Positions 42,203 through 57,444 are shown, counted from the stretch's first letter. The stretch is DNA of 57,545 nt from a virus (IMGVR_UViG_3300024243_000020:1-57545), one strand, 5' to 3'. Numbers and translations are program-made. The notes: generated by a model not told the origin, from the letters alone.

Positions 42203-42572
42203 TGGTGGAGGTGGGGGTATCGAAACCCCGTCCTGAATACTCTACATATATAGTCGTTCACAAGTTTTGATTATTTTTTTTTGCAACCTATGCGAAAAAA
42301 TTTAACTAAAAAAACGCATTTTTTTTAATGTTGTTGTACATCCAAAATAATAAAACAAACAATCCATTATATTTCGCCAAATGAACATGGCTATCAGATT
42401 AATGTCCCTTAATGCATATCTGAGTCAAACATTAAGAGTGCTGTTTATACGTATTACTACGCTACAGCGTGATAGTTATAATCGTTTCCAATTACTTTTG
42501 TTGTGATTGTTAAGTCAATCAATCTACTTGCACTACATATTTCAAAAATCCAGTCGAAACCAAGTCACCCCC
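42203..42572 (-). ncRNA. ssrA: tmRNA, tag peptide (A)GNDYNYHAVA
   Basis: 5' GGGGGTGA...TTCGAC; 3' GGACGGGGTTTCGATACCCCCACCTCCACCA; G3-U70 pair; tag ORF 42457..42489 followed by tandem stops. Confidence 0.93.
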
Positions 42573-42582
42573 AATTATTTTT

Positions 42583-42828
42583 TTACCAGCTTCTTATCAT
42601 ATCCAATGTTTCTTTGTCAATCAGTTCACTGGTATCAGATATGTCTATCCGATCATCTAATTCTTCCTCGTTAATATTTTGTTGAATATTAATTTTAGCT
42701 TCTGATACTAATCGTAATATACCCAACACATCTTCTAATGTAGTATAATCATCATCAGCCAACATATCTTCAATCAATGTTATTGATGTATTAATATTAT
42801 CAAAAATATTTTCCATATCATATCGCAT
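42583..42828 (-). CDS. Hypothetical acidic protein
   Basis: ORF abutting neighbours. Confidence 0.6.
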   Translation of the reverse strand: MRYDMENIFDNINTSITLIEDMLADDDYTTLEDVLGILRLVSEAKINIQQNINEEELDDRIDISDTSELIDKETLDMIRSW

Positions 42829-43119
42829 TTATGAATCTCCAATTGTTGTAGATTTTAAATCAATATTATTTTCTTTTAAAAATTCATTCATTTCATCAAA
42901 TGATTCTGATTCATTCATATCATCATGTAATGGTATATCCAACTCTGATTCTATCATTTCATTTAATTCATCCAATTGTGCATCAAATTCAACTTTCAAA
43001 TTATCCTTACCATTTATGATTAATGTATCAACCAAAGCTTCAACTACAATTGTCATGTTCTTAACATGATTAAATAATATTCGTTGTCTATTTTCTAGTT
43101 CTTTAATTTTCTTTTTCAT
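42829..43119 (-). CDS. Hypothetical protein
   Basis: ORF directly after a promoter-like motif. Confidence 0.6.
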   Translation of the reverse strand: MKKKIKELENRQRILFNHVKNMTIVVEALVDTLIINGKDNLKVEFDAQLDELNEMIESELDIPLHDDMNESESFDEMNEFLKENNIDLKSTTIGDS

Positions 43120-43123
43120 ATAC

Positions 43124-43163
43124 TAATAAATATAGTCTAAAATCACTAAAACAACAACTTTTT
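43124..43163 (-). promoter_or_regulatory. Repeated putative phage promoter
   Basis: AAAAAGTTGTTG...TTTTAGACTATATTTAT on minus strand; close copies near 14593..14632 and 47236..47275. Confidence 0.6.
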
Positions 43164-43167
43164 CATT

Positions 43168-43737
43168 TTAATCAGCAATTATTATCCAATCGTTCAATAA
43201 ATATTGAGATGCCTTTTTATATTTTATTACTTTTGTCTGCACACCATCTGATATTGTTATCTTTTCATTTGGTTTATATTTCGTCTTCACTGTTCTCATA
43301 ATTGTCTTAATTCGTCGATCATACATGGTTTTACCATCCAAGTGATCTATCTCATGTTGAATTGCAATACATTCTAAAGTCTTGTGGTGATTGTTTGGCA
43401 TTACTTCAAATACCATATCATCATAATTATCTGATGATACTGTTACTTTTGAAAATCTTTCAGTTTTAATTTTTTTATTTTTAAATGATAAACATGATTC
43501 TAAATATATATATTTTCCAGATGATTCAATAATTTCTGGATTTATAAAATATAATGGTTCATCGATATTTAAAACACATACTCGTTTATTTATTCCAATT
43601 TGATTTGCCGCTAATGCCACTCCAGTTTTATGTAATTTTAATTCATTTAATAATTTAGCCGATATTTCTTCACCTTCAATTATATCATTGACTTTTTCAC
43701 ATTCTTTTGATAATCTATATTTGTCTGTTACTATCAT
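43168..43737 (-). CDS. def: Peptide deformylase
   Basis: GVALAANQIG, ESCLS, QHEIDHLDG motifs. Confidence 0.93.
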   Translation of the reverse strand: MIVTDKYRLSKECEKVNDIIEGEEISAKLLNELKLHKTGVALAANQIGINKRVCVLNIDEPLYFINPEIIESSGKYIYLESCLSFKNKKIKTERFSKVTVSSDNYDDMVFEVMPNNHHKTLECIAIQHEIDHLDGKTMYDRRIKTIMRTVKTKYKPNEKITISDGVQTKVIKYKKASQYLLNDWIIIAD

Positions 43738-44183
43738 TTTAATTTACCATTTAGTTTTTCAATTTTTTTAAAGAGTCTTGTTTTATAAGACTTTCTGTGT
43801 TCTTTCGCTAATTCTTTTTTTAGCTTTGAAATTTCAACCAATATCACATCATCATCAGTTTTAGATTTTTTCTTTTTCCGTTTTATTTTAGTTGGTTTCA
43901 ATGTGCCTTTTAATTCTGGCTGTTCAACTCCTTTATGAAATACCTTTCCAGTTTTATCAACATACTCTGCCATAAAATGCCATCCAACTGGTCGTTTAAA
44001 ATTTACTTTTTTCAAATACAATCGTTCTAAAAGTTCAGTAGGCCAAGTTTCTCTACAAACACATCTCCAACATATCACTGCATGTGTATCTCCAGCACAC
44101 TTCTCATTGTGACAATCACATAGTTTACAATAAAGATATTTATCAGCCAAGTCTCGTAATTTAGCTGTTATTTTTGTTTTCAT
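43734..44183 (-). CDS. Hypothetical zinc-finger basic protein
   Basis: CKLC...CWRC; Lys-rich C-terminus. Confidence 0.65.
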   Translation of the reverse strand: MKTKITAKLRDLADKYLYCKLCDCHNEKCAGDTHAVICWRCVCRETWPTELLERLYLKKVNFKRPVGWHFMAEYVDKTGKVFHKGVEQPELKGTLKPTKIKRKKKKSKTDDDVILVEISKLKKELAKEHRKSYKTRLFKKIEKLNGKLK

Positions 44184-44187
44184 TTAA

Positions 44188-44727
44188 TCACTTTACCAAT
44201 TTAAATTCATTCCCACCAAATCTAACTGTTTTGATTGATGATAATTTCACATCTCTAATAATAACTTCACGGTCAACATCTTGTCTTGAATCATATCTTT
44301 TTGGTAAAAATGTTTTCAATTCTGATAAGTTATTCTTAACAACCGTTTTACCAGCTACAGTACATGTTTCATCAATAACTTCTTCACCATTTAAAACATA
44401 TTTAATGTCTTTGGTGCCTTCAACTTTTAATTGGAGATAGTAATTTCCTTTATGTTCAACAAATTTTCTACCTTCCATTAATGTTCCCCATTTACGAGGT
44501 TTTGCATCAAATACTTCAGCAATCTCTTCACGATTTCTTTGACTGTTTACTGAATTCTCATAATCAAAACCAATACAGCCATTTAATGTCTGAGTTTTCA
44601 TTGCACCCAAATATGGATTATTTGTTTTTAGCATACGTGGATCAGTCTCAGTGGAACATGACACAAATGTAGTGCCTTTATAATTATTTATTTGTTCAAC
44701 AAATTCTTTATGTGTCATTTCATTCAT
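44188..44727 (-). CDS. Hypothetical phage protein
   Basis: ORF with GAGG upstream and its own promoter-like TTG...TATATTTA. Confidence 0.65.
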   Translation of the reverse strand: MNEMTHKEFVEQINNYKGTTFVSCSTETDPRMLKTNNPYLGAMKTQTLNGCIGFDYENSVNSQRNREEIAEVFDAKPRKWGTLMEGRKFVEHKGNYYLQLKVEGTKDIKYVLNGEEVIDETCTVAGKTVVKNNLSELKTFLPKRYDSRQDVDREVIIRDVKLSSIKTVRFGGNEFKLVK

Positions 44728-44811
44728 TTTGTTGCCTCATCAATTGTTAAATTCTTGTCTCTCATAACTACTTAAATATACGAAGAAGTAAGTAGGTAAT
44801 ACAAGAAACAT

Positions 44812-45384
44812 TTAAATTATTTTTCTAATCTCTTTTAATCTGTTGATTTCATATTTCATATGCCGATAATTTTCATGCATATTATATGCAGTCACAAATC
44901 TGATAGCTTTTTTACCTGAGTCTTCAACACTATATAATACCTGATTATTATCATCGATCATCCAATCAATATCAAAATCCTTTTTAGTATCATGTCCACT
45001 TGACCAATATACATCATCAAATCTTAAATTGTGTTTATCTATCCAATATTTAGAATATTCCATAACTTCTTCAGTTGGCTGATATGAAACTAAACATAAT
45101 TCATGTCCATTATCATGTAGATATTTTCGTATTTTATTAAAATCTACAATTGAAGTAGCTATTGGTGGAGCTTGAGTATAAATGTATTCCGTAATGTCTC
45201 CACTACGGAATACATAATCATCACTTTCTTTTTCAGTCCAAAATGGCAACCACTGTGTGAAACTATATCCCAACATTGGTAATTCTACTTTGTGTATTAA
45301 TGATGGATTGTGTATCGCTATTGCTTGTACAACACCAGAAACAAAATCTCTCAATACACCATCTAAATCTATACCAATTCTCAT
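44812..45384 (-). CDS. HAD-family 5'(3')-deoxyribonucleotidase-like protein
   Basis: IGIDLDGVLRDF motif I; MIDD motif IV. Confidence 0.85.
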   Translation of the reverse strand: MRIGIDLDGVLRDFVSGVVQAIAIHNPSLIHKVELPMLGYSFTQWLPFWTEKESDDYVFRSGDITEYIYTQAPPIATSIVDFNKIRKYLHDNGHELCLVSYQPTEEVMEYSKYWIDKHNLRFDDVYWSSGHDTKKDFDIDWMIDDNNQVLYSVEDSGKKAIRFVTAYNMHENYRHMKYEINRLKEIRKII

Positions 45385-45400
45385 GAAAAATATACTTTAT

Positions 45401-46183
45401 TTAAAATAAAGTTTTAGTGAATCGAATTGTCCAAACATCACTGTCTGAGCAATCTACAATGAAAAACAAATCTTTTTCTAATTTGTATCCAACACCATAT
45501 TCAAAATCTTCATCTGAATTATATCCACCTGTGAAAATGAAATTATTTGGTGTATTCAATGTAGCTCTTGTCCAATATGAATCCTCATCTGAATCCAAAT
45601 CGTATTCACCCATCACATTAAGTGACAATGAATCACCAAAGACAATATCAGTTTTCCAATCAAATGTTTTATTATTTTGATTGTCAAATGAAACTCCAAA
45701 CATACCAGAGCTTACTCTATATGCTAGATATTCTTCATAAGGATTGATGTCATTAGAATAAAACACATCCAATGTTGCCAACCACAAATCAGTGCTTAAT
45801 CCAATACCATTTGCAGTACCATCAGTCACTGTTGAACTAATAGTTCCTGGTACAGTACTAAACATATTGACTGTTGGTTTTCTCAAGTCCCATGTAATAC
45901 CATATGGTGTTGGTTGTAGTCCAAATATAATATCAGTATTTAACATACCCATATTATATGTGAAATTCATCTCTTCAACTTTAAATGTTAAATCAGATGA
46001 TACATTAATACCTAATTTCCAATCATTTACACCAACGTCGATACCAACATATGGCATCGTAACATCAGTTTGATTGTCTTGATTGATGATTGCTGTACTC
46101 ATCTCACCATTAAATTGAGTTTGAGCGGTTACAATCGATGTAAACATGATTAGCGTTACAAGCAATGCTGTAAGTTTTTTCAT
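45401..46183 (-). CDS. Secreted outer-membrane beta-barrel (porin-like) protein
   Basis: Signal peptide MKKLTALLVTLIMFTSIVTA; alternating amphipathic strands; FGLQPTPYG; terminal Phe. Confidence 0.6.
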   Translation of the reverse strand: MKKLTALLVTLIMFTSIVTAQTQFNGEMSTAIINQDNQTDVTMPYVGIDVGVNDWKLGINVSSDLTFKVEEMNFTYNMGMLNTDIIFGLQPTPYGITWDLRKPTVNMFSTVPGTISSTVTDGTANGIGLSTDLWLATLDVFYSNDINPYEEYLAYRVSSGMFGVSFDNQNNKTFDWKTDIVFGDSLSLNVMGEYDLDSDEDSYWTRATLNTPNNFIFTGGYNSDEDFEYGVGYKLEKDLFFIVDCSDSDVWTIRFTKTLF

Positions 46184-46263
46184 ATTCTTCCCTTTCTTTT
46201 GTTTTAATTTATCTTGTTGATCTTCAACAAGAACTTTCTTTCAGTTTTTTGTTTTATATACTT

Positions 46264-47127
46264 TTATACCTTAGTGCCACATCCAGAACAATATGTCCAT
46301 TTTGGGTGTATTTTGCGACTACAGCTAGTACAATATCGTCTTAATCTACTGTCATTTACAGTTAATAACTTTTCAGATTCTGGTAATAATTTATATCTTA
46401 TTGTTTCAAATGAATAAGAATTAAATTTATTATATGCATTAGTGAACTCTTGTTTTGAAGTTCCACCCATCTCAACTCTACCAGTTTCAATTAAATCATC
46501 ACCACTATCATCATCAGCAACTTTATCACCAATAGATATAGAATCATTTAATACGGTAGCTTTAACTCTTGCACCCCTCGCCTGTGATAAAGATGATGCT
46601 GAAAATGATGTATTAGTAGTTAATGTGCCACCTGTGCCACAATCTCGTTCAAATAATAAGCCACGTTTATTCGTAGTACCATGATTATTGAACCAATCAG
46701 ATTCAAACGTGTGTGTACCACCTATCCAAGTTATTGGAAAGTCTGGTACTTGTTCCTTATAATAGATAATTTCAACATTTCCATTATTCTTTATTGCTTC
46801 TTTTGATTGTTCATTTTTTGCTTCTATATTATACGTATTGAAAATAAACTTTCGTTGATCTTCTAAATATCTATCTAGAAATACATGCTCACCAGGTTTC
46901 AATACAATACCAGATGCTGATATTAAATTATCATCTAACTTGATTCGTGCTAATACAGTACCTCTTGTGTTATTTGATAATTCAATTTCAAATTCAGTTC
47001 CATCTTTTAAATAAATTATATTCTTATCGTATTTTGGTCTTCTATTTTTATTAACTGTTATCTCTGCTAAAACGTGTTCTTTGAAATCATAAGTCGTATT
47101 AACGCTTATGCGTCTTGTTGTTTTCAT
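46264..47127 (-). CDS. Hypothetical protein with C-terminal double zinc ribbon
   Basis: YCTSC...YCSGCGTK; IETGRVEMG; AGGAG upstream. Confidence 0.7.
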   Translation of the reverse strand: MKTTRRISVNTTYDFKEHVLAEITVNKNRRPKYDKNIIYLKDGTEFEIELSNNTRGTVLARIKLDDNLISASGIVLKPGEHVFLDRYLEDQRKFIFNTYNIEAKNEQSKEAIKNNGNVEIIYYKEQVPDFPITWIGGTHTFESDWFNNHGTTNKRGLLFERDCGTGGTLTTNTSFSASSLSQARGARVKATVLNDSISIGDKVADDDSGDDLIETGRVEMGGTSKQEFTNAYNKFNSYSFETIRYKLLPESEKLLTVNDSRLRRYCTSCSRKIHPKWTYCSGCGTKV

Positions 47128-47157
47128 AATAATAAACTCCTATTTATATTAATATAC

Positions 47158-47221
47158 GTGCAGTCTCAATTCATATAATCGAAGTTATATTCAAATGTTA
47201 CCATAACACTTGAGATAGCAC
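47158..47221 (-). promoter_or_regulatory. Structured leader RNA (three-way junction)
   Basis: GTGC/GCAC and TCTCAA/TTGAGA closing stems enclosing GTGTTA/TAACAT and ATATAA/TTATAT hairpins. Confidence 0.5.
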
Positions 47222-47471
47222 AATTAGTCTATACATATATAAATATAGTCTAAAATCGGTAAGTCAACAAGTTTTTTTATTTTTTTTTATATTAGTCACT
47301 TAATCGTTCTGCTAATCCAAAAATCCAACTTGCAAAAAATCCAACTCCTGCAATTATAATTGGTGTTGATTCTAATTCAATTCCACCTGAAATTACAAAT
47401 ACAGATGTAATGAAATTTAGAAATAATCTTAATACTCCATATTTATTTAATGTTGACATGATTCTCCTTTC

Positions 47472-48509
47472 TTATCTTTTTCGTTTAATTTTAAAACCAA
47501 TCACATTATCAGCACCATCCTCAGTCGTATCAAATCCAATTCGATTTTGATCATCGGATGATCCACCCACATCATGTAATTTAGCTTGATATGATTTTGC
47601 TGATAATCCTTTTCCACTTCGCATTTTATTTATGCGAGCTTTTACTGCATCATAACCCTTTTCATAAATTTTAAATGCAACTAACAACTCACGCATGTGA
47701 GCAAATGTCCAATCTTTTGTATCCTTTACAATATTGTCCAAATCTCGTTTTTTAATTTTTGGTATTTTACTTCTTACAAAAATACGTCTGTCTGCATCTG
47801 ATGGGAAATCTATATTTAATATCACATCAAATCTACCTGGTCTGTTTATTATTTTATCAGGCAACAATTCAGGATTATTCGTGGTTGCTATGAAAATCAT
47901 ATTACTTGATGCACTATTACTATCTAAAAAGTCCATCAATGCATCTTCCCAACCATCATGAAATACTTTCTCAATATCTTCAGCAGTCACTATGAATGGC
48001 CTATTTGGTTCAATTTCTCTAAAAGCAGCTATTGCAATCTTTGCTTGCTCACCCCATTTAAATACAACTCCACCTTCTGCTATGAATGCATTTACTATTT
48101 CTAATATGGCAACTGTTTTTCCAGTTCCAGGTGGACCCCATAATAAAAATCCACGATTGTGATCTTCATTCATTTCTAAATATTTGTCACGAAGATTAAA
48201 AAATTCAAAGCATTCTGATTTTAAAATGTTTATCTTTGAATCTTTTAGTTGTAAAATGTTTTTAGTCTTACTGGATATTTTAGAAAAATAAGCATTACCA
48301 GTTTGATGATTAAATATACTTTCATAATATCCAGGACTTAATCTATCTACTGAATCTTCTATTGGATAATATTTACCATATCCATCTACTTGATATTTAC
48401 GTAATTTTTTATCATTATTAGTTTTCTCTTCAGTGTTCGATGGATATGCTACCTCTGGCTCGTCTAGGTTAAACAACTCCTCAAGTAATCTCACTCTATG
48501 TGCTTTCAT
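47472..48509 (-). CDS. AAA+ ATPase
   Basis: WGPPGTGKT, AEDIE, ATTNNPE, NRPGRFD. Confidence 0.9.
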   Translation of the reverse strand: MKAHRVRLLEELFNLDEPEVAYPSNTEEKTNNDKKLRKYQVDGYGKYYPIEDSVDRLSPGYYESIFNHQTGNAYFSKISSKTKNILQLKDSKINILKSECFEFFNLRDKYLEMNEDHNRGFLLWGPPGTGKTVAILEIVNAFIAEGGVVFKWGEQAKIAIAAFREIEPNRPFIVTAEDIEKVFHDGWEDALMDFLDSNSASSNMIFIATTNNPELLPDKIINRPGRFDVILNIDFPSDADRRIFVRSKIPKIKKRDLDNIVKDTKDWTFAHMRELLVAFKIYEKGYDAVKARINKMRSGKGLSAKSYQAKLHDVGGSSDDQNRIGFDTTEDGADNVIGFKIKRKR

Positions 48510-48532
48510 ATAATCATATTTCCGTATTTAAT

Positions 48533-48988
48533 TTATTTTTTATTTTTTTTCCAAAACTCTTGATGAAACCTGTAATCAATTATCTTTACACTTTTTATCT
48601 CTTTCATTTTATATGTTCGATATACACTATTTGTTATTTTTGATTTTAAAACCTTCTTTAAACGTGAATAATAAAACTTCTGTGAATTTGATATATCAAC
48701 CTTAAAAAAAGGTAGTCTTAGCTTATCTAAAAATTTACTTCTCTTGGTTAATGTCTCACCCGTTATTTTTATTATCGTCTGTAATTGATCTTCACTGACA
48801 TAATTTATATTTAAGCCATGTAATAAATTCTTTTTATCTTTTCCTAAATATAATACATATGGATTTTTATCATGTACGTTTTTTCCAGAATATGAAAAAC
48901 GAATGATATGTCCAGGTTTAAATTTACCTTTGACTTTTGATCTTTTTTCTGATATAATGTTCTTTTTATGTTCTCTTAAATATTTCAT
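48533..48988 (-). CDS. Possible DNA end-protector (T4 gp2-like) protein
   Basis: GHIIRFSY...DKNPYVL...HGLNINY pattern; basic. Confidence 0.4.
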   Translation of the reverse strand: MKYLREHKKNIISEKRSKVKGKFKPGHIIRFSYSGKNVHDKNPYVLYLGKDKKNLLHGLNINYVSEDQLQTIIKITGETLTKRSKFLDKLRLPFFKVDISNSQKFYYSRLKKVLKSKITNSVYRTYKMKEIKSVKIIDYRFHQEFWKKNKK

Positions 48989-48995
48989 ATTTTTG

Positions 48996-49070
48996 TACTC
49001 CCGAAAGGATTTGAACCTTCATGTGTCGTTAGCCTTTCAACGGGATCGAACTCCGAGGGCATACGGGAGC
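48996..49070 (-). ncRNA. Atypical tRNA-Arg(TCG)-like RNA lacking a canonical D arm
   Basis: GCTCCCG/CGGGAGT acceptor, GAAGG-TTCAAAT-CCTTT T arm, loop GT-TCG-AT; only ~6 nt before the anticodon arm, ~20 nt after it. Confidence 0.6.
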
Positions 49071-49072
49071 AT

Positions 49073-49165
49073 TGGCGGAGGATAAGAGATTCGAACTCTT
49101 GCAACGTATTTCTACGTGTTAGTCGGTTAGCAACCGAGCCTCTTAGACCACTTGAGTAATCCTCC
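49073..49165 (-). tRNA. tRNA-Ser(GCT)
   Basis: Cloverleaf, loop TT-GCT-AA, long variable arm, encoded CCA. Confidence 0.93.
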
Positions 49166-49317
49166 ATTTATTTTTTTATATTAATCAATAATCGAGTTGA
49201 GCTTTGATTTTAAGTCTTAATAATGCAATTTCAACCTGTTGTATTAAATCTTCATGACTATCTTCAACCAAACCATTTTTAACAAGTTCAATTATGTCGA
49301 TTGCGTCAGTTCTCATA

Positions 49318-49581: not shown

Positions 49582-49585
49582 AATA

Positions 49586-50022: not shown

Positions 50023-50023
50023 A

Positions 50024-50518
50024 CTATCTAACTCTCGCATCTGCAACACAACTTGAAGCCCATGCTTCTGGTTTTGCTTTTCCAACAAATCCCATACCAA
50101 CAATATAACCAAGACATAGTTGTACAACTTCTGATGAAGCGTATTTTGAATTTGGATTTACATCAGCATGAATTTCATTAACTTCCAATCCTACTTTTTC
50201 AAGTATTGGATTAATCTTAACAGCAACATCAACCGCTTGATATGTTTCCATAAATAATCGTTGTCTTCGGCTTACATGTTTATCAATTTTATTATCACTG
50301 AAATAGATTCTTCCACCTTTACCTTCATTGATAACGATAATCACGGCAACATATTTAATGAATTTTCTATGCACTTGTGAATCAGCACCAACAATGACTT
50401 TTAATTTAGTATCATTTCGTTCTGCATTTGCGATATCAGTTAACAACGTTTCTTCGATATTTTCAATCTTTTCATTTGTTCCGAATCGCTTCCACTTATG
50501 TTCTATGTAATTTGACAT
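50024..50518 (-). CDS. RNase H-like YkuK (DUF458) family protein
   Basis: VGADSQ, GKGG, EIHADVN, KPEAWASSCVAD. Confidence 0.85.
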   Translation of the reverse strand: MSNYIEHKWKRFGTNEKIENIEETLLTDIANAERNDTKLKVIVGADSQVHRKFIKYVAVIIVINEGKGGRIYFSDNKIDKHVSRRQRLFMETYQAVDVAVKINPILEKVGLEVNEIHADVNPNSKYASSEVVQLCLGYIVGMGFVGKAKPEAWASSCVADARVR

Positions 50519-50522
50519 TTTC

Positions 50523-50672
50523 TTAACCTTTTCTTCCTGCTAAACTTTGATATTTAGGTTTAATTTTTTTAAAACTATTACATCCACAGCAATGACATTT
50601 AGTTGGTTTGTTACCATATTCAGTATCACACTCTAAACATTTATAGTTTAAATAATAATGTGGAGTATTCAT
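50523..50672 (-). CDS. Small zinc-ribbon protein (start moved to ATG 50672)
   Basis: CLEC...CHCC; the longer call overlaps tRNA-Val. Confidence 0.5.
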   Translation of the reverse strand: MNTPHYYLNYKCLECDTEYGNKPTKCHCCGCNSFKKIKPKYQSLAGRKG

Positions 50673-50696
50673 TTTTCTTAACCTTTTCTTTTTGTG

Positions 50697-50769
50697 TGAG
50701 AGCAGAGGGACTTGAACCCACATCATGCTGAATGTAAATCAGTTGCTCAGCCAATTGAGCTATACTCCC
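50697..50769 (-). tRNA. tRNA-Val(TAC)
   Basis: Cloverleaf, loop TT-TAC-AT. Confidence 0.88.
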
Positions 50770-50779
50770 ATTATTGTTG

Positions 50780-50850
50780 TAGCCCCACCCAGAATCGAAC
50801 TGGAATCACATGCATATCAGGCACATATTCTACCGTTGAACTATAAGGCT
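50780..50850 (-). tRNA. tRNA-Ile(GAT)
   Basis: Cloverleaf, loop CT-GAT-AT. Confidence 0.88.
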
Positions 50851-51028
50851 ATATTCTTTATATAATATAAATATTGAGATGCTATTATTTATATATCATA
50901 TTTATCTTTTAAAAATTTTCTGTATTCAGGATTATGCTTTTCTATTTCTTTTAAATCATGTTGAAAACATAATCCAAAAAGTAAATGCATTATTATCACT
51001 ATTGCTATTAATAATAATAATCCCCACA

Positions 51029-51244
51029 TTATCTATTTTTCCAGCGTATTTTAAGTTTCTTGTAATGTATACCAACTCCAACAATTAACACGACTAAAGT
51101 AAATAAAGCTACCCTAACAGCAAGTTCGATATAAGTTAATGGTGTCGTTCCTATGAGTGCTATTATATACAGTACAATAAATGCTTGTATATAAACCCAT
51201 TTTAAATCTGAGACGATCTCCATTATAAATTTTAAATGTTTCAT
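51029..51244 (-). CDS. Small membrane protein
   Basis: Two hydrophobic helices, basic tail. Confidence 0.6.
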   Translation of the reverse strand: MKHLKFIMEIVSDLKWVYIQAFIVLYIIALIGTTPLTYIELAVRVALFTLVVLIVGVGIHYKKLKIRWKNR

Positions 51245-51257
51245 AATCTTTATATAA

Positions 51258-51446
51258 TTAAGAAACCAACTTAATCACAGATGATCTAACATCAGCTGGT
51301 TGTATTTCATACTGAATGGCGTGATATATCAATATCACAGATACATTTTCAGACATTGCAAGTATTATCGCTTCATCAATACACTCCGCTTTAGTCGTGC
51401 CTACATTTGCCGTTACAATTATTTGATCTTTTTCAATATGTTTCAT
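51258..51446 (-). CDS. Hypothetical protein
   Basis: ORF with AAGGAAG upstream. Confidence 0.55.
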   Translation of the reverse strand: MKHIEKDQIIVTANVGTTKAECIDEAIILAMSENVSVILIYHAIQYEIQPADVRSSVIKLVS

Positions 51447-51534
51447 TTATCTTCTTCCTTTTATTTTAACATGTCATAACTTAATACATTTTTATCATAT
51501 AAAAAAACATTTATTTTTTTTTATTTATTTCATG

Positions 51535-51619
51535 AGGAGGGGACAGGACTCGAACCTGCACGTCCTTGCGGACAACGGTGTTCAAAACCGTGGCGATACC
51601 AATTACGCTTTACCCCTCC
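51535..51619 (-). tRNA. tRNA-Ser(TGA)
   Basis: Cloverleaf, loop TT-TGA-AC, GTCC-GCAA-GGAC variable arm. Confidence 0.9.
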
Positions 51620-51635
51620 ATTTTTTTATTTTTTG

Positions 51636-51708
51636 TACTCTGGCCCAGAATCGAACTGGAATCTGAAATTTATAAGATTTCGGTTCTTGACCATTGAACT
51701 ACCAGAGT
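51636..51708 (-). tRNA. tRNA-Ile(TAT)
   Basis: Cloverleaf, GAAAT-CTTATAA-ATTTC anticodon arm, A73. Confidence 0.88.
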
Positions 51709-51853
51709 GTTGTTTAAAACTTATTTCTTCTCACTTGTTTTAATATCTGTTTTAATTCTTTTTTATTTAACTTAGAAAATCTATAAGAAAATAATGGTGT
51801 ATCAGTATACCAAAATGGTACTGTCCAACCTTTTACTTTTTTTTGCCACCACT

Positions 51854-52108
51854 TCATAATATATACGCTATATATTCATTTTCATTTATAATTTTAAATG
51901 CACTAGTATCATATGTAAAATGTTCCCAAGCTTTCTTTTCATTCTTTAACGCAAGTTGAGCATCTTTGTATGATTCAAACGGTATTATATCACCATCTTC
52001 ACTATAGTTAATATCATACCAATAATAACGAGGATTTCTATCATTAGGATTATGCATATCATTACTTAATATTTCATTATGATTAGTATCTATAATATAA
52101 TATTTCAT
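51854..52108 (-). CDS. Small paralog, MKYY...ExExxAxxL family
   Basis: MKYYIID, PFESYKDA, INENEYIAYIL. Confidence 0.8.
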   Translation of the reverse strand: MKYYIIDTNHNEILSNDMHNPNDRNPRYYWYDINYSEDGDIIPFESYKDAQLALKNEKKAWEHFTYDTSAFKIINENEYIAYIL

Positions 52109-52371
52109 AATATATACGCTATTAATTCATTTTCATCTACTACCTTTAACTCATATAGCATATCATCGTTACCCTCATTAAGGTACTCCAGTTCTATTTT
52201 CATTGCGGTTTCTGCTTCTTCATATGAGTCAAATGGCTCTACTGGATTATCTTCAGATAGATCACCCCAAAGGTATCCTATATCTGCATTTATTCCATTA
52301 TACAACACACTACTCATTATAGTATTTTCATATGGCACGGCGCCAGTATCTACTACATAATAACGTTTCAT
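52105..52371 (-). CDS. Small paralog, same family
   Basis: MKRYYVVD, PFDSYEEA, VDENELIAYIL. Confidence 0.8.
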   Translation of the reverse strand: MKRYYVVDTGAVPYENTIMSSVLYNGINADIGYLWGDLSEDNPVEPFDSYEEAETAMKIELEYLNEGNDDMLYELKVVDENELIAYIL

Positions 52372-52622
52372 AATAAAAAAGCCACCAATTCAGTTTCTGA
52401 TAATACTTTCAAGTTATTTGAACTAGAAATTGTTTTTAATCTAATATCAATTTCATATTGTGCGTCTTGTCTTGACTCATATTGTTTAGCATATTTCGTA
52501 TTCTCTGTCCAATATTCGTTCCAACCATTTTTAGACTTTCCAATCAAATCACGCTTATACCAAATCGGTACTTTATTACGATCACCTATATATTGAAAAT
52601 ATGTTATAATATAATATTTCAT
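52368..52622 (-). CDS. Small paralog, same family
   Basis: MKYYII, QYESRQDA, LSETELVAFLL. Confidence 0.8.
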   Translation of the reverse strand: MKYYIITYFQYIGDRNKVPIWYKRDLIGKSKNGWNEYWTENTKYAKQYESRQDAQYEIDIRLKTISSSNNLKVLSETELVAFLL

Positions 52623-52861
52623 AATATATACGGTATTAATTCATTCTCTGTTAATATCATAAATGATCTTGGTACACTATTTTTCCAATATTCATTTTCA
52701 ATCTTTAATGCTGATTGTGCGTCACTATACGATTGAAATGGTGTAACATCATCAATTCGCTCAATATCATACCACGTATATCCGTCGTTAATATAGCCGT
52801 TATTAAATATTTCATTGCTTACTATTTGTAAATCATTTAAATCTATAATATAATATTTCAT
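52619..52861 (-). CDS. Small paralog, same family
   Basis: MKYYIID, PFQSYSDA, LTENELIPYIL. Confidence 0.8.
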   Translation of the reverse strand: MKYYIIDLNDLQIVSNEIFNNGYINDGYTWYDIERIDDVTPFQSYSDAQSALKIENEYWKNSVPRSFMILTENELIPYIL

Positions 52862-52863
52862 TG

Positions 52864-52936
52864 TGGTGCGAGTTGGGATCGAACCAACATATCTTGGGCT
52901 TCACTCAAGTACCTTAACCACATCGGACTCCGCACC
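52864..52936 (-). tRNA. tRNA-Phe(GAA), atypical
   Basis: GGTGCGG/TCGCACC acceptor, canonical T arm, loop GT-GAA-GC; A8, weak D stem, A31-C39 mismatch. Confidence 0.7.
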
Positions 52937-52946
52937 TTATTTTTTT

Positions 52947-53171
52947 TCATAATAACATTGCAATTAATTCTAATTCAGATACCACTATATCACAATTATC
53001 AGTATACTCATCATCATGGTTGAATTCATTTGCATCTTCTCTCGTTTCAAATATCATAGCTCTTGATATATGTGTTGTTAAATTATTAGTAGCATCAAGT
53101 TCACTACCACGTCTAATGTATCGAACATATCTACCATCTGAATGATCTTTGCATATAATATAATATTTCAT
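52947..53171 (-). CDS. Small paralog, same family
   Basis: MKYYII, IFETREDA, VSELELIAMLL. Confidence 0.8.
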   Translation of the reverse strand: MKYYIICKDHSDGRYVRYIRRGSELDATNNLTTHISRAMIFETREDANEFNHDDEYTDNCDIVVSELELIAMLL

Positions 53172-53434
53172 AATTCTGTAATAACTTTTAGTGCTTCATA
53201 TTCTTGTTCTGTCATTTTAATAATCGTACACATATATTGACGCTCAAGATCATAAAATTTTTCTTTAGTATTAAATATCTTTCTATAATATTTAACGCCA
53301 GATATACCCGAATCACAATATACAACAGCATCTTTAACTCGTGTTGTTAATCTTGCTGTACGATCATCATCATCGATTGATATATACACTGCTGAACTAT
53401 CATATGGTCTATCGAATAATGCTAAATAAATCAT
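53168..53434 (-). CDS. Small paralog, divergent member
   Basis: LTTRVKDAVVY, MTEQEYEALKVITEL. Confidence 0.7.
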   Translation of the reverse strand: MIYLALFDRPYDSSAVYISIDDDDRTARLTTRVKDAVVYCDSGISGVKYYRKIFNTKEKFYDLERQYMCTIIKMTEQEYEALKVITEL

Positions 53435-53643
53435 AACATTAACGCCACTAATTCTTCTTCTTTTAATTTAACAACAATCTCTTCACTAGCCATTATTGCA
53501 TATGCAACGTCTTCGGTATCACATATAAACGCATTATTAATATTTTTTGTATATCCCATTTCATCTTTATGTACATATTCACCAACACAACCATTTACTG
53601 TATCAGTACTTACAATTACATATTTTACAATTCGTTCTGACAT
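53431..53643 (-). CDS. Small paralog, same family
   Basis: KYVIV, YTKNINNAFICDT, LKEEELVALML. Confidence 0.75.
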   Translation of the reverse strand: MSERIVKYVIVSTDTVNGCVGEYVHKDEMGYTKNINNAFICDTEDVAYAIMASEEIVVKLKEEELVALML

Positions 53644-53647
53644 GATA

Positions 53648-53884
53648 TTATAACATTTTTATAATATACTCAGCTTCAGTTAATATAAAAATCTTCTCAT
53701 CATCACCAATACCATGATTATCAATATTTTTCTCAGCATCAATTACTGAATCAAATACTTTAGCGTTATCAATGTCTGGTGTATAATCATCATAACAATC
53801 CACATATTCGCTAAAACTTTCATCACTTTTACATATATTTTGAATTACAATATATGATTTCTTTTTATTTTTTTTGCTTTGCAT
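53648..53884 (-). CDS. Small paralog, same family
   Basis: SYIVI, YTPDIDNAKVFDSVIDA, LTEAEYIIKML. Confidence 0.75.
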   Translation of the reverse strand: MQSKKNKKKSYIVIQNICKSDESFSEYVDCYDDYTPDIDNAKVFDSVIDAEKNIDNHGIGDDEKIFILTEAEYIIKML

Positions 53885-54095
53885 TCTTCTTTTTTGAAGA
53901 TGTATTATTTTTCTTCTTGTTCACCTGCTCGATAATTAACGCAGTTAATTTGGCTCGTTCTTTTTTTGCACCTTTATCTTTTCCAAACATCCCGTCTAGT
54001 CGTTTCAACTGCTGAAGTGGACTTCGTTTCGATCTTGTGCTTTCTCGCATAATAGCCTCATCTTGCTTTCTTTTTTTATTTGCGTTCATTTCCAA
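53865..54095 (-). CDS. Basic hypothetical protein
   Basis: RSPLQQLKRLD...GAKKERAKL. Confidence 0.6.
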   Translation of the reverse strand: MEMNANKKRKQDEAIMRESTRSKRSPLQQLKRLDGMFGKDKGAKKERAKLTALIIEQVNKKKNNTSSKKKNAKQKK

Positions 54096-54480
54096 ACCTT
54101 TTATTTAATCGTTTCCATGTTTTGTGATCTCGATCATCTTTCTTTAATAATCTTTCTGCATTTATTTTTTCTGTTCGCTCACGTTGTTTTTTATTTCTTT
54201 CCATTCTATTTTCAAATTCTTCATCAGTTTCTTCTCGATTACCATACACCATCAGTGATCTAGTATCTTCATACCTATGCCATTCAGTTGTAACTTCAAT
54301 ATTAGTATAGCCAAGTTTTTTACCAGCAACATCTATTTCATCTAAATAAGATTTTATTTTATCAACTGATCCATCGATAAGTTCAACAGATACATATATG
54401 AAATTATCATTTTCATTTTTAAGTATGCCACTTAAATTTTCTCGTAACATTTTTTTCTTATCTACTTTATTTTTTTTCAT
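54076..54480 (-). CDS. Hypothetical protein, paralog of 56606..56944
   Basis: Shared GxRxETDEEFExR motif. Confidence 0.65.
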   Translation of the reverse strand: MKKNKVDKKKMLRENLSGILKNENDNFIYVSVELIDGSVDKIKSYLDEIDVAGKKLGYTNIEVTTEWHRYEDTRSLMVYGNREETDEEFENRMERNKKQRERTEKINAERLLKKDDRDHKTWKRLNKRFGNERK

Positions 54481-54496
54481 TTTTTCTTCTATTTTG

Positions 54497-54581
54497 AGGG
54501 ATGAGTCAGATTCGAACTGACGTGAGAATTTCTTCTAATGGCTTTGCAAACCACCCTATTCAACCACTCTAGCACCATCCC
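54497..54581 (-). tRNA. tRNA-Cys(GCA) with long variable arm
   Basis: Loop TT-GCA-AA, U73, AGAA-GAAA-TTCT extra arm. Confidence 0.82.
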
Positions 54582-54591
54582 ATTGTTTATT

Positions 54592-54846
54592 TCATAACTT
54601 TAATATAACAGCTTTTTCATCTGATATTGATCTTATTTCTAATACATATCTACCAGCCACATCATATAACCAATCTGCATCAGTTGATATCGGCCATAAC
54701 ATTTTTATACATTTCATTGCAAAATATCTTGATTTAAATAGTTTTATATTACGATCTAATACATCTATCCAATAGTCACAATGTCCATCGTTTCCTGTAT
54801 AATAAGCTTCGTCGTGATTGCACTTATCATAAATATAATATTTCAA
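54592..54846 (-). CDS. Small paralog, same family (TTG start)
   Basis: MKYYIYD, LFKSRYFA, ISDEKAVILKL. Confidence 0.7.
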   Translation of the reverse strand: MKYYIYDKCNHDEAYYTGNDGHCDYWIDVLDRNIKLFKSRYFAMKCIKMLWPISTDADWLYDVAGRYVLEIRSISDEKAVILKL

Positions 54847-54853
54847 ATTGTAG

Positions 54854-55105
54854 TCATTTCAATTTTTTCCAAGGATATGACCAACCTCTAGCTGGATTTT
54901 CATTCCAACCGACTGCGTATCCATTTTCTAATTTACACCAATTATATACATATTTTTCTTTAAATATATTGTGCTTAATTTCACCAGTTTCAAATCCATG
55001 TGTAGATACAACATTAACATTCAACCACGTTTCAAGCTTTTCATCTGATTTTGTGATTGGATTAAACTCTTCACCTGTTGACTTGAGCCAATCTTTTAAT
55101 ATCAT
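54854..55105 (-). CDS. Hypothetical protein
   Basis: WCKLENGYAVGWNENPARGWSYP. Confidence 0.65.
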   Translation of the reverse strand: MILKDWLKSTGEEFNPITKSDEKLETWLNVNVVSTHGFETGEIKHNIFKEKYVYNWCKLENGYAVGWNENPARGWSYPWKKLK

Positions 55106-55413
55106 ATTATAATTTTACCGTTTACGATCTTTGCTAATTGTCCAGAATATTTCAACATCTTCTTTCTTGCAATCATCATCTGTTTAAGTGTGATGAATCC
55201 ACGCTTATGATAAAACTTAACAAAACTCGACATGATCATTGCATCAGCACCTGTAAATCCTACACCATTATCATGATTTGTACTATCAGACTGTTGTTCA
55301 TCAAAAGTCTGCAACTCAAAAATCTTACACATTCCACGTAGAACTGCTTCATCTCGTGTTTCTAACAGTTTACGAATTTCTTCTTTTTTCCAAATTCTTT
55401 TTGTGTTCGTCAT
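55102..55413 (-). CDS. Hypothetical phage protein (start moved to ATG 55413)
   Basis: QTFDEQ...NGVGFTGADA; TAAGGA upstream of MTNTKR. Confidence 0.65.
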   Translation of the reverse strand: MTNTKRIWKKEEIRKLLETRDEAVLRGMCKIFELQTFDEQQSDSTNHDNGVGFTGADAMIMSSFVKFYHKRGFITLKQMMIARKKMLKYSGQLAKIVNGKIII

Positions 55414-55501
55414 GTGTGTTTCCTTATGTATTGTTGTCAATTAACTATGTAAATTTAAGAATAAATACACATATAAAAAAACACTTATTTTCATTCATTT
55501 G

Positions 55502-55577
55502 CGGAGCATAAGGGTTTCGAACCCTCCTGATATTCTACGTGACAGGCAGATGACCACACCAAGCAGTCCCATACTCC
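55502..55577 (-). tRNA. tRNA-Asp(GTC)
   Basis: Cloverleaf, loop CT-GTC-AC, G73. Confidence 0.85.
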
Positions 55578-55586
55578 AAATAATAC

Positions 55587-55693
55587 AGTAGATGTTCTTA
55601 ACCGATATTCAACTATGCCGAAGATATACGAATTATATCCCAAGCTGAGATTCGAACTCATTAAAGCCAGTGAGCTCCCACATGGCATCTACT
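55587..55693 (-). ncRNA. Circularly permuted tRNA-like RNA (Y RNA / YrlA-like)
   Basis: Terminal stem AGTAGAT/ATCTACT; internal order: extra hairpin, T arm TGAG-TTCGAAT-CTCA, loop-closed acceptor-like stem, D-like arm with GG. Confidence 0.6.
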
Positions 55694-55696
55694 TTG

Positions 55697-55768
55697 CGCG
55701 TACTGAAAGTTTCGAACTCTCCCATCGGGGTTTGGAATCCCAATCGCCACCAAGGAACATTAGCACGC
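55697..55768 (-). tRNA. tRNA-Trp(CCA), atypical D arm
   Basis: GCGTGCT/AGTACGC acceptor, loop TT-CCA-AA, G73, canonical T arm. Confidence 0.75.
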
Positions 55769-56000
55769 AAATTATGATTGATATATTATTTTGTTTCTTA
55801 TGGTGTTTGCTGGTTGTTTCCAGAAATAATATATTATATGATTTCACATACAATGTATCGTCATTGTATGTCCAATATATAATCCACAGTTCTCTACTAC
55901 ATATACAATGAATAACCAGTTCGATATCCAACTATTCGTTACTATATATTTCAATGAAACCTACCCTCCACGGATAGTGTGTCTATTATCAATCAATTAT

Positions 56001-56140
56001 ATGTGAATAGTGTGTTATTACACCAAAGGGATGCAGTTTCTTTCACCTGTCACTCAGTTTATAAACTCTGATCATTGAACTTTCGTTCTTTCCCCACTCA
56101 TTAAAAGATGGCTACCTCTAAGCCAACTTCCTATTCACAT
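56001..56140 (-). ncRNA. 23S rRNA H43/H44 (uL11-binding GTPase centre) mimic RNA with internal insertion
   Basis: 10-bp terminal stem ATGTGAATAG/CTATTCACAT; AGGAAGTTGGCTTAGAGGTAGCCATCTTTTAATGAG and GTGTAATAACACACT align to E. coli 23S 1054-1089 and 1091-1105. Confidence 0.85.
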
Positions 56141-56143
56141 TTG

Positions 56144-56223
56144 TTGCGGACACGGGAGTCGAACCGCGTTATTTCCGGGTTATGAGCCCAGCGTGATTTA
56201 TGTGTCCATTTCACTCGCCCGCT
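56144..56223 (-). tRNA. tRNA-fMet(CAT), initiator-type with enlarged D loop
   Basis: A1-A72 mismatch, GGG/CCC anticodon stem, loop CT-CAT-AA. Confidence 0.82.
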
Positions 56224-56238
56224 ATTTTTTTCTTCAAT

Positions 56239-56290
56239 TGGTAGCTCTCCACCAACAGCTCATGACACTGTGGTCGTATACAAGAGAGCA
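56239..56290 (-). ncRNA. Armless mini-tRNA-like RNA (CAT loop, encoded CCA)
   Basis: GCTCTC/GAGAGC stem ending T-A-CCA; second stem closing 7-nt loop GT-CAT-GA. Confidence 0.5.
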
Positions 56291-56433
56291 ATTTTAATCT
56301 TTTGTTACTTTATATTTTATACCATTTATAAATATTATACCTGACTTATTAGTACTATTTACAAATTTCATATATTGAATTTTAGCGTTTCTATCATTCA
56401 TTATATTTTGTATTAATTTATATCCTGATGGTT

Positions 56434-56625
56434 TCATTTCATCCATTCTTTCACTCTATGATAGAAATCTTCTGATGTTGCATGTTTTAAAATTTCTCGA
56501 TCTTCTTTTCTCATTTTCTTAACCAATGCACCAGGTTTCTTTCTATCTGCATCCACAAAAACAACTGACATTAGTAATCTGTGAATGACTTCTCTTATTC
56601 TTCGTTTAGATGGTTTTTTCATCAT
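56434..56625 (-). CDS. Basic hypothetical protein
   Basis: ORF overlapping upstream stop. Confidence 0.5.
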   Translation of the reverse strand: MMKKPSKRRIREVIHRLLMSVVFVDADRKKPGALVKKMRKEDREILKHATSEDFYHRVKEWMK

Positions 56626-56944
56626 CTTTCTCTAAATCTTTAAGTTTTTCATATAGCTTTTTATCTTTGTTCATTCTATTTTTCAATCTTGTCAGCTTAC
56701 CATCTGCTTTCCGTTTTCGTTTTTCAAATTCTTCATCTGTTTCAAGTCGTTCGCCCCATATTTCAACTGCACAATATTCATATTCCTCTATCCATTTAAA
56801 TTGAATATCAGTCACGCCTTCAGCTGTCAAATCTTTTTTAATGGTTTTTATTATTGCAATAGTACCATCTATCTCACAATTCAATATTATGTCTGGATCA
56901 AAATATCCCATGCCTTTGTCTGTAAAAATTCTTTTCTTTTTCAT
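56606..56944 (-). CDS. Hypothetical protein, paralog of 54076..54480
   Basis: WGERLETDEEFEKR. Confidence 0.65.
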   Translation of the reverse strand: MKKKRIFTDKGMGYFDPDIILNCEIDGTIAIIKTIKKDLTAEGVTDIQFKWIEEYEYCAVEIWGERLETDEEFEKRKRKADGKLTRLKNRMNKDKKLYEKLKDLEKDDEKTI

Positions 56945-56966
56945 TTCATTTCATCTCTTTCATTTG

Positions 56967-57037
56967 TCTGGTACATTGAGTCTGAGTCAATCAGTCCATG
57001 TTTCCAAAACACAGATGCCACCGTAGGTCAGTACCAG
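56967..57037 (-). ncRNA. Atypical tRNA-Pro(TGG)-like RNA
   Basis: Perfect CTGGTAC/GTACCAG acceptor with C1-G72 and A73; 7-bp stem around TT-TGG-AA; non-canonical T loop CTCAGAC. Confidence 0.6.
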
Positions 57038-57052
57038 TTAATTTATTTTTTG

Positions 57053-57124
57053 TGGAGGATACGGTGATCGAATCCGTGACGCTGACTTGCAAGGCCAGTG
57101 CTTTCCCATCTAAGCTAATCCCCC
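57053..57124 (-). tRNA. tRNA-Ala(TGC)
   Basis: G3-U70, loop CT-TGC-AA; A53-A61 mismatch in T stem. Confidence 0.88.
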
Positions 57125-57134
57125 ATGTTTTATT

Positions 57135-57335
57135 TCATTCTTCTACATATTTCATATACCATTCAGCGTTATTAGTTCTGATATATCCTATTACCCATAT
57201 AAAAGCTGTTACTATCAATCCTTGCACCATAACTGATGGTAATGTAAATATACACCATAATAGTAAATTGAATAATACTCCAACACAAAATACTACAACA
57301 GCAAGTGCTATTAGTTTTTCTTTTAGATCAGTCAT
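57135..57335 (-). CDS. Small membrane protein
   Basis: Two hydrophobic helices; AAGGA upstream. Confidence 0.6.
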   Translation of the reverse strand: MTDLKEKLIALAVVVFCVGVLFNLLLWCIFTLPSVMVQGLIVTAFIWVIGYIRTNNAEWYMKYVEE

Positions 57336-57353
57336 TTTTTTCCTTTTTATTTG

Positions 57354-57444
57354 AGCTGACAGTAGGATTCGAACCTACGTGGGAGAACTTATCTATCCAC
57401 CTGATTACAAGTCAGGACCTGTCGACCGCTTAGGTAATGTCAGC
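57354..57444 (-). tRNA. tRNA-Thr(TGT) with long variable region
   Basis: GCTGACA/TGTCAGC acceptor, CCTGA-CTTGTAA-TCAGG, ~21-nt variable region. Confidence 0.85.

Follow-up and report, generated by a model that had tools for sequence, protein, structure and literature searches.

Several kinds of RNA are known that copy a part of the ribosome or are encoded alongside the transfer RNAs (tRNAs) of phages. Leaders of ribosomal-protein operons, for example the L10 leader, mimic the protein-binding sites of ribosomal RNA (rRNA) and act in cis upstream of the gene that they regulate; that mRNA leaders can mimic rRNA is well established. The tRNA cluster of phage T4 gives rise to two stable RNAs that are not tRNAs ('species 1 and 2'), presumably freed by tRNA-processing enzymes. 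GOLLD and ROOL, both of them Rfam families, are large ornate phage RNAs found near tRNAs. Phage tRNAs themselves serve as replacements or as decoys against tRNA-cutting defences, and huge phages carry transfer-messenger RNA (tmRNA), deformylase and large tRNA sets. Here we describe a viral DNA stretch of 57,545 nt (IMGVR_UViG_3300024243_000020:1-57545; its whole length is called the window below) in which one element among the tRNA genes, termed element D, copies the GTPase-associated centre (GAC) of 23S rRNA, the uL11/thiostrepton domain at E. coli positions 1051-1108. Element D is a true mimic of this rRNA domain and not rRNA itself, and it belongs to a phage RNA family of which about 48 copies were examined, cultured jumbo phages included.

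Like the GAC of the ribosome, the phage copy has the three-way junction, the hairpins of helices 43 and 44 (H43 and H44), the U1060/A1088 pair and the set 1072/1092/1099; unlike it, the copy is free-standing, with a closing helix of its own, an insert of 0 to ~350 nt and variable positions 1067-1070, and it is encoded in phages and in cyanobacterial tRNA arrays, outside rRNA genes. With the L10-type leaders it shares the property of being an RNA off the ribosome that copies an rRNA protein-binding site, but element D lies among tRNAs without a downstream coding sequence and matches no Rfam leader. The likeness to T4 species 1 and 2 (a small non-tRNA RNA within a phage tRNA cluster) is one of location, and the GAC copy differs from them in its identifiable rRNA-derived fold. 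GOLLD and ROOL are likewise ornate phage non-coding RNAs that often adjoin tRNA genes; here, however, the core is an rRNA domain, and neither family matches the window or 20 related loci at E values up to 1. A further parallel is offered by the tRNA arrays of mobile elements: according to passages of PMC8421152, long arrays aid survival under translational stress, which ties tRNA clusters to sustaining translation, and two cyanobacterial arrays examined here hold a minimal GAC together with a look-alike of the sarcin-ricin loop (SRL).

The GAC copy and its family

The element occupies a single interval of the window:

56002..56139, minus strand: element D, self-closed copy of the 23S rRNA GAC, 138 nt (by E. 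coli comparison and family model)

In E. coli 23S numbering, it runs through the end of helix 42 (H42), H43, the junction, a 65-nt insert, H44 and the returning strand of H42, and it is closed by its own 9-bp stem. Its 5' part finds 23S rRNA in every E. coli genome compared (5426/5426; 86% over 36 nt, with a median of 7 places per genome). The features that mark the family are present: the 5' module (nhmmer E 1.6e-12), an exact 3' module and the 9-bp closing stem just mentioned. The copy has U1060 and A1088, and positions 1067 and 1095 are both A in it. The element begins 4-6 nt after a Met-like tRNA and is followed by a 230-nt spacer and then by tRNA-like genes. It does not lie in a 23S gene, since its flanks consist of tRNA-like genes and spacers and Rfam detects no large-subunit (LSU) rRNA match in the window. 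The window's array holds no SRL-like piece. An initial annotation, made from the sequence alone, had proposed an rRNA-domain mimic among the tRNA genes; the E. coli matches bear this out, as does the family model introduced below, which gives true 23S GACs 42.8-63.8 bits.

Searches with parts of the element uncovered its relatives. An exact 21-mer from H43 is present in five IMG/VR contigs, with tRNAs alongside in 4/5; in one of these contigs (527 kb; locus L015) Rfam reports an LSU rRNA match of 50.6 bits within a tRNA cluster. A 15-mer search yielded 27 loci, 14 of them in the same context, and the 3' module is found at no fewer than 119 loci, with at least 26 family members among 80 of the matches listed. 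The full architecture was recognized by blastn in unannotated gaps of Aeromonas phage 4_4572, Serratia phage BF, Xanthomonas phage XacN1, Acinetobacter phage ME3 and Ralstonia phage RSP15, and Erwinia, Pseudomonas, Paenibacillus and Vibrio phages gave further matches to the 5' module, Pseudomonas phage Milchi and Paenibacillus phage Pd_22F among them. In one copy (L029/L015) the similarity to rRNA reaches into the flanks. Among 80 genome loci containing the 15-mer, true 23S genes (nearly all from Patescibacteria) account for 40, unrelated sequences for 37 and GAC-like sequences outside rRNA for three.

The insert between H43 and H44, so variable in length across the family, has conserved motifs of its own and a covarying closing stem. 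The long inserts of the cultured-phage copies (L284-L288) share blocks, such as a G-rich GGGGAAGGA block and a GGGCGAAGCC block. Because conserved insert blocks are shared, the large form of the family is an ornate RNA of 240-330 nt with structure beyond the GAC core. A covariance model, R1, was built from 20 short copies, the window copy among them. It scores the window copy, used in building it, at 111.3 bits; outside its training set it scores 5/5 cultured phages at 62.6-70.1 bits and six such copies at 62.6-89.7 bits. R1 also recovers the true GACs of rRNA (42.8 bits for E. coli, 63.8 for a Patescibacteria genome and 60.0 for an archaeon). Rfam 15 contains no family for these RNAs; over the window and 20 related loci, with E up to 1, its only match on any copy is the partial LSU rRNA hit in L015. 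Neither Rfam 15 nor the literature searched, with subscription journals outside its scope, yielded a virus-encoded copy of an rRNA functional centre or a paper on a phage copy of this domain, and a term search met no rRNA-like element in PMC10690425 and PMC8421152. The family seems to be undescribed to date.

For residue counts, 36 family copies were numbered against E. coli 23S. U1060, U1066, G1071, U1072, A1073 and A1077 are present in 36/36 copies and A1088 in 32/36. Passages of PMC2175356 have the U1060-A1088 pair contacting L11 residues 130-131; according to PMC6239185, L11 binding requires the folded GAC, described there as an autonomous element; and passages of the two papers treat positions 1061, 1067 and 1069 as naturally variable. 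A1095 is found in 34/36 copies, though many of the copies were retrieved with an exact H44 pattern.

Pairing is maintained while sequence changes. Pair 1058-1080 is UA in 16 of the 36 copies, GC in 9 and AU in 8, pair 1054-1105 is AU in 21 and GC in 10, three pairs of the H43 stem change jointly in individual copies, and the closing helix of the family elements covaries freely. When the 20 short copies are aligned with MAFFT, a 22-pair GAC-like structure has 86.2% of its cells paired against 62.3% in shuffles (0/500 reach the observed value), and the covariation score is 0.520, where shuffles give 0.155 and sliding the partners gives 0.124 at most; 19 of the 22 pairs vary on both sides. Position 1072 tracks the pair 1092-1099, with which it forms a base triple in the GAC: U accompanies U-A in 34/36 copies and U.G in 2/36, and C accompanies C-G in E. 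coli and in three cultured phages that had been found without recourse to their 3' modules. The 23S rRNAs of Patescibacteria (40 loci, L047-L124) have the variant with G1070/U1072 and U1092-A1099, as do most phage copies.

The family keeps company with tRNAs, counted in flanks of 600-700 nt. They are near the element in 16/38 family loci against 2/63 chance-hit control loci in the same scans (Fisher p 1.2e-6), and 38/39 of them share the element's strand, often at a distance of 9-24 nt (for 7 of them upstream); many family elements are directly followed by a tRNA. A second piece of the ribosome is imitated as well. A 12-mer within two changes of the SRL occurs in 9/39 elements, amounting to 10 hits in 8,826 nt inside elements against 0 in 95,755 nt of control, and identical or nearly identical SRL matches of 10-14 nt lie in the inserts of larger members (L036, L183, L197, L207, L224, L021 and L033). 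In two cyanobacterial genomes (L069 and L105) a minimal GAC copy lies downstream of a tRNA array, with a perfect SRL match of 13-14 nt ~70 nt upstream of the GAC copy. Compared with the whole of E. coli 23S, the elements imitate only the GAC and positions 2652-2665 (the SRL); other short hits resemble those of the reverse-strand control.

Among 64 flanking open reading frames (ORFs), most have no family, none is a ribosomal-protein gene, and a weak Acb2/Tad1 match appears in one locus. An RNA ligase gene (PF09414) adjoins the GAC copy in two unrelated phages, at 838-1488 in XacN1 (L286) and at 1-351 on the minus strand in L034. In a 124.6-kb viral contig (L014), a suppressor-type tRNA with anticodon UUA at 1904-1984 on the plus strand lies ~15 nt upstream of the GAC copy, which hints at stop-codon recoding in that phage.

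Translation genes, tRNAs and structured spacers in the window

The whole window has ~30% G+C, and all of its genes are on the minus strand. A megablast comparison of the region with 50,697 phage records gave no match; metagenome runs from seawater and other marine sources contain DNA near-identical to the window. From 42.2 to 57.5 kb the tRNA genes are interspersed among ~40 small ORFs, so that the tRNA array of the initial annotation is not borne out as a dense one. The Pfam cut-off was passed by 3/37 scanned ORFs (the deformylase, an AAA ATPase and an RNaseH-like protein), and a promoter/terminator scan gave no more signal than shuffles did. Relatives sought through the protein at 55102-55440 comprise 11 viral loci with 46-63% identity, which have almost no tRNAs and no blastn match to the window RNAs; for the proteins at 56606-56944 and 47472-48509 no relative was found in metagenome or viral collections, and blastn-short of the odd elements described below against the collected loci gave nothing meaningful, the sole match being 16 nt of tRNA-Cys. 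Very high depth over 56013-56531 (runs X16-X18) was traced to true rRNA contigs of other organisms, which continue as real H44 at 56101 and 56132, and was set aside.

The RNA features of the region other than element D, together with the deformylase gene, are as follows:

42203..42572, minus strand: tmRNA (ARAGORN; Rfam RF00023, 105.2 bits against a gathering score of 47)
43168..43737, minus strand: peptide deformylase, 189 aa (PF01327, E 1.5e-26; phrog_2890, E 1.5e-24)
48995..49070, minus strand: element A, tRNA-like cloverleaf 2 nt after tRNA-Ser (fold z -0.90; ARAGORN only at -ps80, as tRNA-???)
49073..49165, minus strand: tRNA-Ser(GCU), CCA encoded (ARAGORN, Rfam)
50696..50769, minus strand: tRNA-Val(UAC) (ARAGORN, Rfam)
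50779..50850, minus strand: tRNA-Ile(GAU) (ARAGORN, Rfam)
51534..51619, minus strand: tRNA-Ser(UGA) (ARAGORN, Rfam)
51635..51708, minus strand: tRNA-Ile(UAU) (ARAGORN, Rfam)
52863..52936, minus strand: tRNA-Phe(GAA), with A31.C39 mismatch and weak D stem (Rfam 38.2 bits, as 52864-52936; ARAGORN at -ps90, missed at default)
54496..54581, minus strand: tRNA-Cys(GCA), 86 nt, with long variable arm and U73 (ARAGORN; Rfam 48.7 bits)
55501..55577, minus strand: tRNA-Asp(GUC) (ARAGORN; Rfam 31.8 bits)
55588..55692, minus strand: element G, 105-nt structured spacer between the tRNA-Trp-like gene and tRNA-Asp (fold z -1.78)
55696..55768, minus strand: element F, tRNA-Trp(CCA)-like, with A31.C39 mismatch and weak D stem (ARAGORN at -ps90; fold)
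55846..55871, minus strand: perfect 10-bp hairpin in the AT-rich spacer 55769-56001 (fold z -4.00 for the 112 nt of 55769-55880)
56143..56222, minus strand: element C, tRNA-Met(CAU)-like (Rfam 23.2 bits, E 0.61, gathering score 29; ARAGORN, as 56219-56143, only at -ps80)
56225..56293, minus strand: hairpin upstream of element C (fold z -2.15)
56966..57037, minus strand: element B, tRNA-Pro(UGG)-like (ARAGORN at -ps90; fold)
57052..57124, minus strand: tRNA-Ala(UGC), with G3.U70 pair (ARAGORN, Rfam)
57353..57444, minus strand: tRNA-Thr(UGU), 92 nt, with long variable arm (ARAGORN, Rfam)

The tmRNA and the deformylase had both been named in the initial annotation, and both hold up, the first by ARAGORN and its 105.2 bits in Rfam and the second by its PF01327 match and three motifs. 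The tmRNA satisfies the full Rfam model, with a G3.U70 pair, an encoded CCA end and a tag reading frame GNDYNYHAVA. All three metal-ligand motifs of the deformylase are kept (GVALAANQ, ESCLS and HEIDH, the first having A for the second G), and the enzyme is apparently catalytically competent, judging by these motifs. Both genes are ordinary members of the translation gene set of huge phages. The only oddity is the tmRNA tag peptide, which terminates in AVA; the common ending is of the LAA type.

We took a default ARAGORN call or the Rfam gathering score (29 bits) as the standard for a canonical tRNA. Default ARAGORN finds one tmRNA and nine tRNAs at 42.2-57.5 kb, and Rfam adds tRNA-Phe, which brings the tRNAs above standard thresholds to 10. 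In bacteria, long variable arms are normally confined to Ser, Leu and Tyr tRNAs, yet here tRNA-Cys and tRNA-Thr have them. Other GAC-copy phage arrays (L013 and L012) encode long-arm tRNAs for Lys-UUU (90 nt), Asn-GUU (96 nt) and Glu-UUC (89 nt). Codon use, taken over 27 long ORFs with 13,869 codons, is strongly A-ending (ACA.53, GCA.48, CCA.79, TCA.49, ATA.49, GTA.39), and the favoured A-ending codons are those read by the U34 tRNAs present here, the non-canonical Pro-UGG-like gene included, whose codon CCA makes up 0.79 of Pro codons.

Beside these genes the minus strand carries several odd pieces. That they are paired and close to tRNAs, as the initial annotation had it, agrees with our reading of the gaps, where pieces closed by stems of 7 bp are found at distances of 2-14 nt from standard tRNAs. 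That standard scanners miss most of them is likewise correct: elements A, B, C and F fall below both default ARAGORN and the Rfam gathering score, and relaxed ARAGORN settings add the Phe, Pro-like, Trp-like and Met-like genes and one cloverleaf with a 6-nt loop. The intron option of ARAGORN revealed nothing further. The pieces that had been described as rearranged or armless tRNAs do exist, but divergent decoding tRNAs are the better reading of them (Pro-UGG, Trp-CCA and Met-CAU, along with Phe-GAA). Element B has an acceptor stem of 7 bp and an ordinary anticodon arm; its D arm is tiny, and its T loop lacks the TTC motif. Elements B (UGG) and F (CCA) and tRNA-Phe (GAA) fit a cloverleaf with a 7-nt anticodon loop, a sensible anticodon and a 7-bp acceptor stem, whereas element A does not. 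Because they have 7-nt anticodon loops and anticodons that match the commonest codons, most of the supposed mimics can more simply be taken for working non-canonical tRNAs. An A31.C39 mismatch, closing off the anticodon stem, recurs in both the Phe- and the Trp-like tRNA, as does a weak D stem.

Bacterial initiator tRNAs have a mismatch at 1:72 and a normal acceptor/T stack of 12 bp. Element C, which had been taken for an initiator tRNA, does have the CAU anticodon, in a 7-nt loop, and the initiator-type three G-C pairs (29-31:39-41), but its acceptor/T domain is shortened to a stack of ~10 bp with an acceptor stem of 5-6 bp and an 8-nt T loop, its best fold has a G1-C pair instead of the initiator-type mismatch, and its Rfam score stays below the gathering score (23.2 bits against 29). 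Element A has a 7-bp acceptor stem, a T arm and a second TTCGATC hairpin in the D position; it cannot decode, because its 'anticodon' loop has only 6 nt. Element G, which is closed by a stem of 7 bp and contains a T-arm-like hairpin, was the only candidate for the circularly permuted tRNA of the initial annotation, and this idea was dropped, as ARAGORN at four settings called 0 genes on head-to-tail doubled copies of it; nor does ARAGORN call an ordinary tRNA in element G. The 10-bp inverted repeat at 55846-55871, in the spacer that separates the GAC copy from the Trp-like tRNA, may serve in processing or as an operator. Folded as single sequences, the odd pieces do not stand out in energy (z -0.9 to -2.5).

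Possible roles of the GAC copy

Our best explanation of the region, which taken as a whole we rate at about an even chance, is that 42.2-57.5 kb may be the translation-support island of a large marine phage, laid out on the minus strand and interleaved with small ORFs. It would comprise thirteen decoding tRNA genes with anticodons that suit the A-ending codon bias, four of them non-canonical, the tmRNA and the deformylase, one non-decoding tRNA-like piece and two or three structured spacers, along with a GAC copy that would be excised with the tRNAs and act off the ribosome by binding uL11 or another GAC-recognizing protein. What is shown for the GAC copy is its sequence, its secondary structure, the covariation at tertiary-contact positions, the wide phage family and the same-strand place beside tRNAs; its function is inferred. 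In this scheme, tRNA-processing nucleases would free the copy from the tRNA precursor, after which it would fold autonomously and act in trans, displaying the docking surface of uL11 and the factors away from the ribosome. Its putative partner may be uL11, a translation GTPase, a factor of the stringent response or a toxin aimed at the GAC; uL11 is the first candidate, because the contact pair and the fold are conserved and the apical positions 1067-1070 are not. Toxins against the mimicked site are on record, since Tre23 ADP-ribosylates H44 according to passages of PMC8661411.

Several observations weigh against this explanation. Position 1067, which in rRNA contacts factors and thiostrepton, is A in no more than 27/36 copies and G in 9, and 1068-1070 vary, so that mimicry of the factor contacts appears incomplete. 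The invariance of H44 is partly forced, 24 copies having been retrieved by an exact H44 pattern. No tRNA lies within 600-700 nt in 22/38 family loci, and co-processing with tRNAs is therefore not general; this, like the variability of the 1067 loop, calls for caution. Contigs from four metatranscriptome runs span the region, with tmRNA contigs in 4/4 runs, but contigs from RNA libraries cannot prove transcription, RNA ends or expression level. Lastly, the non-canonical tRNAs could be decaying genes, no relatives having been found with which to compare them.

The variable apex and the tRNA-free loci are equally what one would expect had the GAC core been reused simply as a stable folding module (a scaffold, nuclease barrier or processing signal) that imitates no ribosomal partner, the larger relatives having a function of their own. 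The fixed residues are indeed those expected to hold the fold, and inserts of up to ~350 nt with their own conserved motifs would make the core a platform. We nevertheless consider this rather unlikely, because the sequence remains close to rRNA, even into the flanks in one copy (L029/L015), because the L11-contacting U1060-A1088 pair is retained, and because the SRL look-alike added in several relatives is not expected of a plain scaffold. Another reading is genomic debris: a captured host rRNA fragment and decaying tRNA pseudogenes without function. Elements A and C do fall below tRNA thresholds, the folding z-scores are weak, and no relatives were found that would show conservation of A, B, C, F and G, but the GAC copy is conserved with compensatory changes over ~48 copies from very different phages, and the Acinetobacter and Ralstonia phage copies carry the U-type triple and so are not copies of E. 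coli-type rRNA (the hosts' own rRNA being outside the comparison). Debris was already disfavoured for element D, and for the region as a whole we regard it as very improbable. A cis-acting leader of the ribosomal-protein type, in which the mimic would bind uL11 and regulate a downstream gene, has in its favour the established principle of rRNA-mimicking mRNA leaders; what follows the window element, however, is the 230-nt spacer and tRNA-like genes, not a coding sequence. Elsewhere the element sits 9-24 nt behind a tRNA in 7 loci and is in many cases directly followed by one, and with no ribosomal-protein gene among the 64 flanking ORFs and no conserved downstream gene found, we give this reading next to no credence.

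The initial annotation had gone further and had treated the whole set (tmRNA, deformylase, initiator-like tRNA, rRNA mimic and odd tRNAs) as coordinated decoys against nucleases that cut tRNA or rRNA and against stringent shutdown. One genuine rRNA mimic is present, the 6-nt loop of element A bars decoding, and element C retains its initiator-type anticodon stem despite the shortened acceptor/T domain; there are toxins that act on the mimicked site (Tre23 on H44; PMC8661411), an RNA ligase gene adjoins the element in two loci, and one locus has the weak Acb2/Tad1 match. The set is not inherited as a fixed unit, however: in 10 other GAC carriers (5 IMG/VR contigs and 5 cultured phages, some of them fragments, so that the counts are lower bounds) tmRNA passes the cut-off in only 3 and deformylase in 1. 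Furthermore, the anticodon loops of the Pro-, Trp- and Phe-like genes are proper ones and fit top codons, ARAGORN found no permuted tRNA in element G, and no piece is directly linked to any defence system or to the stringent response, the hints coming from gene context alone. A coordinated suite thus appears unlikely to us. What stands of the idea that RNAs from this region imitate the translation machinery is the GAC copy, which is conserved, covarying and tRNA-adjacent in many phages, and what is left unsupported is the co-inherited suite of decoys. The initial annotation is in sum partly confirmed as an observation and partly supported in its interpretation.

Returning to an off-ribosome role for the GAC copy, the SRL copies in relatives speak for imitation of the factor-docking site as a whole. 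More tentatively, and with somewhat less than an even chance in our estimation, phages may make a ribosome-free replica of the GTPase docking site (the GAC alone in the window, GAC plus SRL in relatives and in cyanobacterial arrays), set free beside tRNAs as a decoy or sponge that keeps translation running during infection. Such a sponge would target uL11 together with the uL11-dependent stringent factor, or else defence toxins by which the GAC or SRL is modified or cut.

For phage genomes, one consequence of these results is that default tRNA scanners overlook about a third of this phage's tRNA genes (4/13). Another is that a GAC element is found within unannotated gaps of dozens of uncultured phages and of cultured jumbo phages. 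If it is true that uL11 or a GAC-directed factor is bound, the element would represent a new phage route to manipulate or protect host translation, and would provide a natural "ribosome-in-pieces" tool.

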